Assembly: GCF_030028105.1 (NCBI RefSeq)
Contig: NC_092370.1
Span: forward strand, 130,301,522 to 130,365,521
Direction of reading: 5' to 3'
Length of the DNA: 64,000 nt
DNA from: Mobula birostris
Lineage: Eukaryota
In this document: one piece after another, positions 46,214 through 53,884 of the stretch
Numbering within the stretch: position 1 is the first letter of the stretch
Layout of the letters: each line of letters opens with the position of its first letter
Notes under the pieces: generated by a model
Seen by the model: only the letters and a program-made list of their open reading frames with translations
Told to the model about the DNA's origin: nothing
The model's database searches: none
Made by a program: the position numbers and the translations under genes

Positions 46214-46309
46214 GGGGTCAACCTTTATGTCAAAAATCTGGATAAGAGTATTGATGATGTGCGACTGCGCAAAGAATTTTCACCGTTCGGTACAATTACA
46301 AGTGCTAAG
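46214..46309 (+). CDS. PABPC1: PABPC1-like exon 7, copy A (RRM4 N-half)
   Basis: ag|[32 protein letters not shown]|gt; 96 nt, phase 0/0, RNP2. Confidence 0.85.
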
Positions 46310-46615
46310 GTATTGTTACTTTGTGCCTAATACATTACCATGTCAGAGGAAGAATAACTTTTTGTCAGAATTGTAGAAGTAGATTAATGGTAAATAGGCA
46401 TCTTAACACAAAAATCTTGTCTGAATGATTTGCTTAAGCATCAGAACTTAACAATTTTTGGCCTATTGTTGAATGGACATCACATAAATGGCATTTTAAA
46501 GAAAACAATAAGTTTCAAACACGAGAATGTTAAGTTTGTTGAATTTTGTATTGTTCAGGTAATAATTGAAACTGGTTGTTTATCAGAATGAAATGTCTCC
46601 CTTTTATCTATTTAG

Positions 46616-46888
46616 GTGATGATGGAGCATGGGCATAGTAAAGGCTTTGGATTTGTCTGTTTCTCTTCACCAGAGGAAGCTACCAAGGCTATAACAGAGA
46701 TGAATGGCCAGATTGTTAGCACTAAAGCTTTGTATGTTGCTCTGGCTCAACGCAAGGAAGAACGACGAGCTCATCTGGCAAAGCAATACATGCAGAGAAT
46801 GGTGAGTGTCTGAGCTGTTCCAAATCCTGTTATCAATTCTTATCAACCAGCTCCACCGTCTGGGTACTTCATGGCAGCAATCCGGCAG
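46616..46888 (+). CDS. PABPC1: PABPC1-like exon 8, copy A (TGA 46811-46813; alternative donor after 46801)
   Basis: [61 protein letters not shown]; ancestral donor cag|gtaaat at 46888. Confidence 0.75.
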
Positions 46889-47009
46889 GTAAATTATTAT
46901 ACACCAAAAGTGGAGGTGGATTTTGTAATAAGTGGCTGTAGTTCTTTATGAAATAAACATAAATGAGCTTTTGACATAATCACAATATTTTAACGGTCGT
47001 TATCGACTG

Positions 47010-48130
47010 TCAGGGGCTCTGACAGAAATATTTCAAAAGTCATTAGAAACGAGCATGGTGCCAGAGGATTGTTCATGTTGTTCCATTGTTTAAAAAGGGT
47101 TCTGAGAGTAAACCTGGCAATTAACGGCCTGTGAGTTTGACGTCAGTGGTGGGTAAATTGATGGAAAGTATTCTTAGGGATGGTATATATAATTATCTGG
47201 ATAGACAGGGTCTGATTAGGAACAGTCAACATGGATTTGTGCGTGGAAGGTCACGTTTGACAAATCGTATTGAATTTTTTGAAGAGGTTACTAAGAAAGT
47301 TGATGAGGGTAAAGCGGTGGATGCTGTCTATATGGACTTCAGTAAGGCCTTTGACAAGGTCCCACAGGGAAGGTTGGTTAGGTATTAATATTGAAGTAGT
47401 AAAATGGATTCAGCAGTGGCTGGATGGGAGACGCCAGAGAGTGGTGGTGGATAACTGTTTGTCAGATTGGAGGCTGGTGTCTAGTGATGTGCCTCAGGGA
47501 TCTGTACTGGGTCCAATATTGTTTGTCATATATATTAATGATCTGGATGATGGGCTGGTAAATTGGGTGAGTAAGTATGCAGATAATACTAAGATAGGTG
47601 GAGTTGTGGATAATGAAGTAGGTTTTCAAAGCTTGCAGAAATATTTAGGCCGGTTAGAAGAGTGGGCTGAAAGATGGCAGATGGAGTTTAATGCTGGTAA
47701 ATGTGAGGTGTTTCATTTTGGTAGGACTTATCAAAATAGGACATACATGGCAAATGGTAGGGCATTGAAGAATGCAGTAGAACAGAGGGATCTAGGAATA
47801 ATGGTGCATAGTTCCCTGAAGGTGGAATCTCATGTGGATAGGGTGGTGAAGAAAGCTTTTGGTATGCTGGCCTTTATAAATCAGAGCATTGAGTATAGGA
47901 GTTGGGATGTAATGTTGAAATTGTACAAGGGATTGGTGAGGCCAAATTTGGAGTATTGTGTACAGTTTTGGTCACCGAATTATAGGAAAGATGTCAACAA
48001 AATAGAGAGAGTACAGGGAAGATTTACTAGAATGTTACCTGGTGGGACTAGGTGAGAGTAAGAGTTCGGCATGGACTAGAAGGGCCAAGATGGCCTGTTT
48101 CCGTGCTGTAATTGTTACATGGTTATATAT
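47010..48130 (+). mobile_element. CR1 RT fragment in intron 8 of copy A only
   Basis: SLTSVVGKLME..YMDFSKAFDKVP..VPQGSVLGP..KYADNTK; copies B and C read gactgaattattcacag without it. Confidence 0.95.
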
Positions 48131-48142
48131 AATTATTCACAG

Positions 48143-48232
48143 GCTCAGAACCGTGCTGCAAATTACCCAACAGACAGCTTGCACAGCTTCGACCCAGCAC
48201 TCGATGGGCTGCCCAAAGTGTCAGACCACAAC
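48143..48232 (+). pseudogene. PABPC1: PABPC1-like exon 9, copy A (1-nt deletion, 90 nt)
   Basis: AQNRAANYPT then shifted frame [20 protein letters not shown]|gtaagt. Confidence 0.85.
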
Positions 48233-48257
48233 GTAAGTAGAATGCTTTTAAGTAAAG

Positions 48258-51340: not shown

Positions 51341-51588
51341 TAACAGAGTGGCTGCCAAGCCAGGATGTCACCTCTACTGCTCTTCATCTCAGCTCCCCAA
51401 CATATGGGAGGGTAACCCTCCAACAACACACTGGCCACTGCAACAAATCCATGGGTGTTGTCCCTCGACACCAGTATCTTAATCTCAGTCTCATCCCCAG
51501 ACTTGTCCTGTTGGTTGCAAAACATTGCACCCATTATGCTGAATCCTGCTCACAGCGTGGATTTGTAAATGAAAATTATTTTGAGATT

Positions 51589-52213
51589 TGTTACGTGTTC
51601 TCTTCTGGTTCAGCTCAGGGTATACGTGCACGTATTCGCAAACAAAGGAGGTGACGCACATATTCACAATTTATTAGAACTAGCACAAATCCAATACAAA
51701 AGTAAAAATAAATCTCTACGGCAGTAAATAGTAGCAATATAGAAATCAAAATAATACTTATCATCCTTGGAATGAGCTGATCTGTGGAATGTTTCCACGC
51801 AGCCTCCCCTCTCTCCCTCCCTTTCTCTCTATCTCAAAAATCTTAGTCTAACTCCAATTCTACGTACTCCGACTCGCTTGATGTACCATTCCCTATCTCA
51901 GCACTCATCGTCAGCCGTGATCTAGGACAAAACTCTCTCCTCGCACCAAGAAGGTACCCCTTTTTATACCCTTCAAAACCACTTACACTGGTACTTCTCC
52001 ATGCATTTGGTACCTGCCTCTGTACAATGACCCTGCCTTTCTATGGGAAAAATACATTTTTCACCATCTTCCACTATTATGGCCATAGACTTGTACACTC
52101 TTAACTTTCTCAAACATTGCTGTGGGCAATCCCAATCCCACTCCAAGCCAACACTTACAGACTTCCATCTTATCTTAGCATTTACCAAGGAGACATTTAA
52201 CTTTTTCCTTACA
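51589..52213 (-). mobile_element. LTR-like segment (duplicated at 57181-57802)
   Basis: Inverted TGTAA/TGTTA termini; minus-strand TATAAAA (~51962) and AATAAA (~51670); no TSD. Confidence 0.4.
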
Positions 52214-52986
52214 GTCACGCAGGAGTTAGTTGTTTTGGAACTGTGGGATTGAGGATTACTCATTCTGCAGAGCGTTGGTCTTCAGTGGTTTATCTGGGAT
52301 GTGTTTGGCTCCTTAACAAGTCCTGGAGTGAATAGTGGTAGAAGAGTGGCATTTGATGCAGAGTACTCCGGAGAAGACTAGATGGATTATCTACTCAATG
52401 TCTCTGGCGGGTGGTTCTGAACACTTCAGAGCTGATCACCAAAAAATGAACGGAGTTTCTGATGAACATTGGAAGACTAGTGAAGAGAGGCCATGTTTTG
52501 GAAGCCCCATCTTCACTTTATGGTTGATGTAATAAGATTCTGTGTGCTATTTTCATGAAGAGAGCAGTTACCTTAGCATTACAATTGCCTTCTCAGACAA
52601 AATCATTGACAGTGTCGTGGTTATTACAATGATTATTGGAATTGCTGTTTTGAGATGGCTGTTTAATGCAGTTTCTGCATTTCAAGGGTCTTGGAGTATC
52701 CTTATCAACAATGCTATTAAATGCAATTTTATCTTCTTGGCTTTTATCATCAGGTTTCAGCTCTGCTGCTAGTAATGGAGATGTTCACAAATCATCTATT
52801 CCCCATTAAGTTGCCAGCTCCATTCATGGTTGATATGTAAAGATGACTGAGTTTTGAATTGATTAAGGGATTGCATAATTCTGTCTGTTGCTTCTGTATG
52901 AAGTATGTCAGTTTAATGATTTTTAAAGTACATTTGTGTTTAAATATGGTCTAATATGTTTGAATTTGGATATTTTTCGATTATAG

Positions 52987-53082
52987 GGGGTCAACCTTTA
53001 TGTCAAAAATCTGGATAAGAGTATTGATGATGTGCGACTGCGCAAAGAATTTTCACCGTTCGGTACAATTACAAGTGCTAAG
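52987..53082 (+). CDS. PABPC1: PABPC1-like exon 7, copy B
   Basis: Identical to copy A; intact ag/gt. Confidence 0.85.
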
Positions 53083-53388
53083 GTATTGTTACTTTGTGCC
53101 TAATACATTACCATGTCAGAGGAAAAATAACTTTTTGTCAGAATTGTAGAAGTAGATTAATGGTAAATTGGCATCTTAACACAAAAATCTTGTCTGAATG
53201 TTTTGCTTAAGCATTAGAACTTAACAATTTTTGGCCTATTGTTGAATGGACATCACATAAATGGCATTTTAAAGTAAACAAAAAGTTTCAAACACGAGAT
53301 TGTGAAGTTTGTTGAATTTTGTATTGTTCAGGTAATAATTGAAACTGGTTGTTTATCAGAATGAAATGTCTCCCTTTTATCTATTTAG

Positions 53389-53661
53389 GTGATGATGGAG
53401 CATGGGCATAGTAAAGGCTTTGGATTTGTCTGTTTCTCTTCACCAGAGGAAGCTACCAAGGCTGTAACAGAGATGAATGGCCAGATTGTTAGCACTAAAG
53501 CTTTGTATGTTGCTCTGGCTCAACGCAAAGAAGAACGACGAGCTCATCTGGCAAAGCAATACATGCAGAGAATGGTGAGTGTCTGAGCTGTTCCAAATCC
53601 TGTTATCAATCCTTATCAAACAGCTCCACTGTCTGGGTACTTCATGGCAGCAATCCGGCAG
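53389..53661 (+). CDS. PABPC1: PABPC1-like exon 8, copy B (TGA 53584-53586; alternative donor after 53574)
   Basis: Same as copy A with KAVTEM; ATG|GTGAGT at 53572-53580. Confidence 0.75.
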
Positions 53662-53794
53662 GTAAATTATTATACACCAAAAGTGGAGGTGGATTTTGTA
53701 TTAAGTGGCTGTAGTTCTTTATGAAATAAACATAAATGAGCTTTTGATGTAATGACAAAATTTTAACGGTTGTTATCGACTGAATTATTCACAG

Positions 53795-53884
53795 GCTCAG
53801 GACCGTGCTGCAAATTACCCAACAGGCAGCTTGCAGTGCTTCGATCCAGCGCTCAATGGGCTGCCCAAAGTGTCAGGCCACAAC
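53795..53884 (+). pseudogene. PABPC1: PABPC1-like exon 9, copy B (1-nt deletion, donor GT>AT)
   Basis: 90 nt followed by ataagt instead of gtaagt. Confidence 0.85.

Follow-up and report, generated by a model that had tools for sequence, protein, structure and literature searches.

Earlier work on PABPC proteins assigns strict poly(A) binding to RRM1-2, with RRM2 as the eIF4G contact, and the binding of A/U-rich RNA and of the junction between untranslated region (UTR) and poly(A) tail to RRM3-4; the MLLE domain docks PAIP2, PAN3, Tob and GW182, and the linker mediates oligomers (PMC10546976, 10.64898/2026.06.05.728831, 10.64898/2026.06.05.728833). The mammalian neuPABP is a truncated PABPC without MLLE that is reported to bind neither eIF4G nor PAIP2 and to repress translation instead of supporting it (PMC10546976), and PABPC5 and PABPC4L are described as low-abundance paralogues with a divergent RRM4 (10.64898/2026.06.05.728833). 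Here we analyze a PABPC1 duplicate in a 64,000-nucleotide stretch of the manta ray Mobula birostris (NC_092370.1, positions 130,301,522 to 130,365,521, forward strand; hereafter the window), which carries exons 7-9, including those for RRM4, three times in tandem (copies A, B and C).

We hold with moderate confidence that these tandem RRM4 units belong to a 5′-truncated duplicate whose new exon 8 splice donor is used in RNA, whose predicted three-RRM4 protein is likely under moderate purifying selection, and in which the near-identity of copies A and B likely reflects recent gene conversion. This ray variant of PABPC1 is real and undescribed, having been known just as automatic RefSeq 'PABPC1-like' models: we found no description of the gene in the literature searched, and the main text of the manta genome preprint mentions neither 'PABP' nor 'polyadenylate'.

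A truncated PABPC1 duplicate with repeated exons 7 to 9

A segment of about 33 kb, reaching from inside exon 6 (43876) to beyond the end of the gene, was duplicated about 115 kb downstream of an intact PABPC1, and its exons 7-9 were then tandemly repeated. A DNA search of the whole M. birostris genome (4.0 Gb, 4715 contigs) returned four copies of exons 7-8, the fourth being part of the intact parent gene upstream of copy A (G000:C1:130210978-130235240). In this parent, exons 1-13 give an open frame, the stop codon lies in exon 14 and RRM4 equals that of basking-shark PABPC1. The duplicate lacks parent exons 13-14, which encode the MLLE core, and the DNA search found no matches to exons 1-5 near the window. 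The sequence between the three copies is retroelement-like.

All exons of the duplicate lie on the forward strand, starting with the remnant of exon 6 (43876-43960, donor GT at 43961). In copy A, exon 7 (46214-46309, 96 nt) encodes the first half of RRM4 with RNP2, and the shortened exon 8 (46616-46801, 186 nt) encodes RNP1 and ends at a new donor, GTGAGT at 46802, where the parent has GCGAGT; the former exon 8 tail (46802-46888) is now intronic and contains a TGA at 46811-46813 (parent AGA). Exon 9 of copy A (48143-48232) has lost 1 nt of the parent's 91, which leaves 90 nt, and is in phase 0 at both ends. Copy B repeats this arrangement with exon 7 at 52987-53082, a shortened exon 8 at 53389-53574 (new donor at 53575, TGA at 53584) and exon 9 at 53795-53884, the donor of which is dead (ATAAGT, GT to AT at 53885); the RefSeq models skip exon 9B. 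In copy C, exon 7 (58581-58676) is followed by a full-length exon 8 (58983-59267), which has an additional 12-nt in-frame insertion and neither the new donor nor the stop, and by an intact exon 9 of 91 nt (59401-59491). Exons 10 (59623-59736) and 11 (61253-61395) complete the part inside the window; exon 12 (64379-64463) and the last exon (from 65773) lie just past its end in continued window numbering. A four-way alignment of parent, A, B and C, on which all A/B counts given here are based, shows that A and B have in common the GCG to GTG change at 46803 that created the donor, the AGA to TGA change at 46811 and the 1-nt loss in exon 9. RNP2, RNP1 and the exon 7 and 8 splice sites are intact in A, B and C, as the initial annotation had stated.

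Copy B is C-like upstream and A-like downstream, as would be expected of a mis-join in which two haplotypes had been placed in tandem. Such an assembly artefact is nevertheless very improbable: in organism B a single 390-nt DNA contig holds B's private exon 9 letters together with the insertion junction, the model of Mobula hypostoma also has three units, and the A and B flanks differ by 5-10%. Since organism B holds these letters and this junction, A and B were separate before the species split.

Intron 8 of copy A alone contains a fragment of the long interspersed element type (47010-48130, forward strand; RVT_1 match, E 1e-12). The A-B spacer (48326-52424, no strand assigned) consists mostly of fragments resembling long terminal repeat (LTR) retroelements, with a weak RT_RNaseH_2 match (E 9e-4), and pieces of it recur after B (55076-55762) and before C (56628-58353). 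Further upstream, an LTR retroelement at 34575-41282 has terminal repeats that are 94% alike and matches to SCAN, zinc-knuckle, integrase zinc-binding and reverse transcriptase/RNase H domains in separate stop-to-stop frames, and a long pyrimidine-rich simple repeat (12544-13495) adjoins N stretches. Elsewhere in the genome, a match to PABPC positions 1-173 that lacks introns and contains two stops (G000:C9:111934223-111934738) is likely a processed pseudogene, and additional intron-bearing PABPC loci are found on contigs C3 and C35.

The new exon 8 donor and the joined reading frame

The RNA data show that the new donor of exon 8 is genuine and in use. A 484-nt contig of run X9 (predicted RNA), which carries A/B-type letters from 46692, exits at this donor; spliced use was seen in this one contig, from one of four RNA-type runs, the run type being a program's guess. 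Aligned to copy B, the contig has its joint at 53573/53794 and skips 220 nt bounded by GT and AG, and its exon 9 portion has A's private letter. We considered whether the transcript reads through past B's dead donor and rejected this, as the exon 9 sequence it carries is of A type and stops at the border of the exon. In run X11 (organism B), a contig connects a duplicate-type exon 6 with exon 7, its loose end lying before 46212. The same run contains a contig that departs from exon 7A at five sites, as many as copy C does, at a depth of 389 versus 20,316 for the parent type, and in X9 the duplicate contig has a depth of 11 versus more than 20,000 for parent contigs, although contig depth is a poor measure of expression. 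Runs X12 and X13 (organism A) showed only parent-type spliced sequence among the pieces listed, a lack of cover that is not evidence of absence. The donor, the TGA and the A/B-type alleles likewise occur in DNA contigs from both organism B and organism C, and organism C shows the 1-nt deletion.

A complete 7-8-9 unit of 460 nt would shift the frame. With the short exon 8 the unit comes to 372 nt with a 90-nt exon 9 and to 282 nt without exon 9, both in frame, and the 87 nt trimmed by the new donor include the TGA. The donor keeps RRM4 coding, as the initial annotation had proposed. Each repeat unit is hence a multiple of three because the new donor is combined with either the 1-nt loss in exon 9A or the skipping of the dead exon 9B. 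The resulting route 6′-7A-8A-9A-7B-8B-7C-8C-9C-10-11-12-last exon joins 13 exons over 12 introns, all of them GT-AG, into one frame of 517 codons, the translation of which is identical to the RefSeq model XP_072118351. No stop or frameshift lies on this route, so that the gene differs from a duplicated pseudogene in which every splice route is disabled. At its 5′ end, a new ATG at 43889 (an AAA lysine codon in the parent), also present in stingray models, is followed ten codons on by an in-frame TAA, and a second ATG at 43931 opens the 517-codon frame; these ancestral first ten codons are closed by the TAA in M. birostris and open in the stingray models. The last 18 codons (from 65773) are read from a stretch downstream of the parent's stop codon, by way of the same acceptor as in the parent.

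A protein search (7992 candidates scored) with cluster look-up yielded automatic RefSeq models of this gene from four ray species, with three RRM4 in M. hypostoma and M. birostris and two in Hemitrygon akajei and Hypanus sabinus, all named 'polyadenylate-binding protein 1-like' (XP_072118351, XP_062911366, XP_072907566, XP_059827760/769). In all four species the first unit ends at the same methionine, that is with the shortened exon 8, and continues with exon 9 or exon 7. As the same shortened exon 8 occurs in Mobula and stingray models, the donor is older than the divergence of the two families. Dasyatidae are reported from the Eocene (PMC6446806), which would make the gene some tens of millions of years old. 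The first-unit exon 9 comprises 30 codons in Mobula and 23 in stingrays and has thus become a multiple of three by two different routes. Exon 9A, which forms a 30-residue spacer between the RRM4 of A and that of B in the joined frame, encodes an identical peptide in both Mobula species; being also spliced in RNA, it is not the non-coding sequence for which it had first been taken. A second protein search found no further ray orthologues among the best 120 of 7991 candidates, which does not imply absence from skates or sharks.

Selection and gene conversion in the repeated exons

The initial annotation had taken the low divergence between A and B in the part kept by the new donor as a sign of purifying selection, and its counts were all reproduced by our alignment. 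Exon 7 shows no difference in 96 nt and the short exon 8 two in 186 (46691, I/V; 46756, synonymous), giving 2/282 for the kept part, compared to 8/306 in intron 7, 3/87 in the exon 8 tail and 8/90 in exon 9, next to the dead donor. In Fisher tests the kept part differs from the pooled remainder (19/483, p = 0.010), from all four introns (37/751, p = 0.001, a set that includes intron 6, where B is C-like), and not from intron 7 alone (p = 0.109). Without CpG columns the values are 0.026 for the pool and 0.117 for intron 7; with p values that hardly shift, we rejected the idea that CpG decay, which had been named as a possible mimic, produced the contrast. All of these p values understate the role of chance, because the borders were drawn after the data had been seen and divergence along the array is over-dispersed (non-coding B versus C: variance/mean 4.7, p = 1e-7). 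The A/B contrast is real but modest. Relative to the parent, divergence is no lower in the kept part (17/282) than in the released part (8/177; p = 0.53), and the same two copies that differ at 1/94 residues in M. birostris differ at 6/94 in M. hypostoma. A/B divergence is unable to separate selection from conversion, and the A/B contrast is a poor test of purifying selection.

Conversion does touch exons 7-8, as the cross-species data demonstrate. Among the variant sites listed for organism B, the intronic 46612T and the Q64 site 46710 are derived in both A and B and ancestral in that organism's A/B-type contigs, and in M. hypostoma copy 2 carries the parent-type residues D11-G12, E16, R39 and N88, position 11 being K or S in the other nine units. 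The copies display what is expected of concerted evolution, namely species-specific derived sites common to paralogues (46612, 46710) and mosaic tracts that include introns. Non-coding sequence of B and C is identical over runs of 300, 281 and 224 nt, and 37% of its 282-nt windows contain at most two differences. A matching-run test on six pairs was significant for parent-A, parent-C, A-C and B-C (p 0.0015-0.005). We thus regard it as likely that the A/B near-identity results from conversion between repeats on top of constraint, more than from selection.

The competing explanation, that A and B diverged once and that strong purifying selection on the RRM4-coding part alone left the 2/282, appears unlikely to us, while it is in agreement with a number of observations. 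Apart from the pooled Fisher tests, the use of the donor and the RNP motifs, which are untouched in 10/10 units, a flank divergence of 5.1% predicts 3.6-4.6 differences at dN/dS 0-0.1 (dN/dS, ratio of nonsynonymous to synonymous rates), and two or fewer would arise with P 0.31-0.16; even at dN/dS 0, where 3.6 are expected (P = 0.31), strong selection alone fits. Further points also weigh against the conversion part of our reading. The matching-run test was not significant for A-B within the window (p = 0.27) or for parent-B (0.07), and a 686-nt spacer piece common to A and B has no 282-nt window with fewer than five differences. Contigs merge near-identical copies, so that the alleles of organism B were assigned to both copies by depth only (18.8 vs 6.7-8.5), and Q64 is a CpG change that arose in Hemitrygon too. 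What speaks against selection alone is that the same copies differ so much more in M. hypostoma, that the A/B lineage fixed 10-11 replacements versus 5-6 silent changes, that the derived 46612T is intronic, common to A and B and absent from the copies of organism B, and that identical runs at 46190-46351 and 46532-46690, picked after seeing the data, span 24 + 42 + 84 intron nucleotides. Gene conversion had been raised in the initial annotation as a possible mimic. With more species the A/B identity vanishes and a derived intronic site is shared, findings that go part of the way to what that annotation had named as contradicting it.

Several tracts were observed beside these. Copy A is identical to the parent over the 145 nt of 46262-46406, including the first 97 nt of intron 7, the middle of which differs by more than 10%; this identity marks either a conversion tract or a conserved intron element. 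A search for conserved intronic RNA in intron 7 gave no Rfam family at four loci, the sole hit being a chance-level one in intron 6 (mir-338, 27.8 bits versus a cut-off of 57). The introns at 45028-45570 and 60714-61114 differ from the parent by 1-3%, elsewhere the duplicate is 8-17% diverged, and judged by their sequence these introns point to conversion between parent and duplicate over about 115-130 kb. At 46232-46255, A and B read KNLDKSID, the residues being identical to those of parent RRM2; since the codons are unlike those of RRM2, the stretch was not converted from it.

Moderate purifying selection on the RRM4 copies across four ray species is the likelier reading of the comparative data, and to this extent the selection proposed in the initial annotation stands, with low A/B divergence no longer serving as its mark. 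None of 24 variable positions falls within the 14 RNP positions (P = 0.011; ten RRM4 units, four ray species), so that the RNP motifs are unchanged in all ten units. Changes occur at 8/51 positions that are invariant in 41 other PABPC RRM4 units versus 16/43 variable positions (p = 0.02), and between Hemitrygon and Hypanus the RRMs differ at 9/188 residues versus 18/132 in the linker (p = 0.007). All five mid-exon indels are in frame compared to 17/79 in neighbouring non-coding DNA (P = 5e-4, a value inflated because only open models could be found and because exon 10 is left out of those from Hypanus). Mapping by motif shows that all ten units retain the residues that correspond to human Y297, K299, K312 and K361, which were tested in 10.64898/2026.06.05.728833.

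Taken together, we propose that conversion among parent, A, B and C may keep overwriting tracts, exons 7-8 included, and that selection would retain the frame and the RNP motifs. A set of observations counts against this account as a whole. Measured against the parent, the kept part of copy A has 11 nonsynonymous and 6 synonymous changes (dN/dS 0.52-0.70), that of B 10 and 5 (0.57-0.77) and that of C 12 and 3 (1.1-1.5); dN/dS thus ranges from 0.5 to 1.5 by copy and kappa without being significantly below 1 in any case (p 0.24-1.0), and takes a value of 0.81 along the C route (p = 0.46). In a comparison of the M. birostris and M. hypostoma models, RRMs and linker do not differ significantly (3/188 vs 7/177, p = 0.21); here copy B was excluded as converted, and its inclusion gives 9/282 for the RRMs. 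All orthologue models come from automatic annotation, and it was their open frames that allowed them to be found. After exon 9A (48232 onward), the X9 contig runs for 284 nt that match neither 46100-47000 nor 52900-54250 and hence are not exon 7B, and the 9A-7B and 8B-7C joints were not seen in the RNA contigs examined. The ten-codon upstream frame from 43889 has the stronger start context and stops 9 nt before the annotated ATG. The 284-nt sequence itself represents an exon without counterpart in the RefSeq routes.

Much of this would fit a transcribed but decaying duplicate, the frames of which are open owing to conversion repair by the parent and the short time elapsed, and which makes no useful protein, at least in mantas. 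Besides dN/dS, the in-frame TAA after the ancestral start, the weak context of the remaining ATG, the low contig depths (with the reservation made above), the existence of parent-to-duplicate conversion tracts and the departure of the sole spliced contig from the annotated route agree with decay. We nonetheless consider it improbable, if slightly less so than selection alone as the source of the A/B identity, because frames are open in four species of two families, all five indels are in frame, exon 9 of the first unit acquired a length divisible by three in two different ways (30 and 23 codons) and changes avoid RNP and invariant positions. Moreover, the two Mobula species have the same exon 9A peptide, the frame of which is shifted and hence beyond repair by the parent.

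The predicted protein and its relatives

The predicted 517-codon protein consists of three RRM4 and a proline-rich linker and is devoid of RRM1-3 and of the MLLE core. Pfam RRM_1 (PF00076) matches three stretches (E 1e-59), and PF00658 (MLLE) has no match in P0123, P0013 and P0127, only the first ~20 residues of that domain remaining. All three RRMs best match RRM4 and not the four distinct RRMs that define canonical PABPC (TIGR01628, PABP-1234), whereas the linker is of the canonical kind, with exons 8C-12 open and 10/174 residues different from the parent. On these sequence grounds the gene would be placed among truncated PABPCs, derived from a canonical PABPC yet outside its definition. A structure model, a single-sequence prediction of low confidence outside the RRM cores, shows three RRM-like cores in strand-helix-strand-strand-helix order with a predicted local distance difference test (pLDDT) score of about 65-85 and a poorly resolved last strand; the rest is disordered (mean pLDDT 48.5).

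The protein shares with PABPC1 an RRM4 that is 90-92% identical, the exon 7-12 borders and the linker, and differs by the loss of RRM1-3 and the MLLE core, the tandem RRM4, the start in exon 6 and the new 18-residue end. PABPC5 and PABPC4L retain four different RRMs and are not known to carry an MLLE domain; unlike the ray gene they have no RRM4 repeats. With neuPABP it has in common that it is a lineage-specific truncated PABPC without MLLE, and by analogy its effect may be similar; neuPABP, however, keeps RRM1-2 and lacks RRM3, RRM4 and the linker, thus representing the opposite half, and is of independent origin. A similar layout is seen in automatic models of putative RRM4-only arrays from oyster (P0004 with four RRM4, P0010 with three) and lamprey (P0006 with five), which start near the end of RRM3, have tandem RRM4 and no MLLE. 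They are 69-79% identical to shark RRM4, come from distant lineages and, judging by their sequences, are likely of independent origin. The set of tandem RRM4 models (P0004, P0010, P0006, P0003, P0009) also includes a full-length knifefish PABPC with three RRM4.

By way of its RRM4 array, the three-RRM4 protein is predicted to bind A/U-rich RNA or the UTR-poly(A) junction, and, because it has neither RRM1-2 nor the MLLE core, it would do so without stimulating translation; it may act as a low-abundance competitor or modulator of PABPC1. As a more far-reaching and tentative idea, which we consider possible though rather doubtful, myliobatoid rays could have rebuilt a multi-domain RNA-binding 'PABP-44/444' from the back half of PABPC1 by gaining a start codon and a splice donor and through independent indels that restored the frame, yielding a regulator that binds A/U-rich RNA and recruits neither eIF4G nor MLLE partners; the oyster and lamprey arrays would then indicate a recurrent, undescribed class of PABP antagonists.

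The object of interest is the ray RRM4-array gene rather than the contrast between A and B, which serves as a warning that divergence between paralogues in tandem exons reflects conversion as much as selection. The locus also illustrates clearly how a new donor and small indels can rescue an exon duplication that breaks the frame. Two recent preprints report that RRM4 is indispensable for growth and that RRM3-4 enable PABPC1 to span the UTR-poly(A) junction and modulate deadenylation; engineered RRM1-2 repeats (PABP1212) are tested there as well (10.64898/2026.06.05.728831, 10.64898/2026.06.05.728833). The natural RRM4-only array of two ray families is the mirror image of PABP1212 and testable in the same replacement system.

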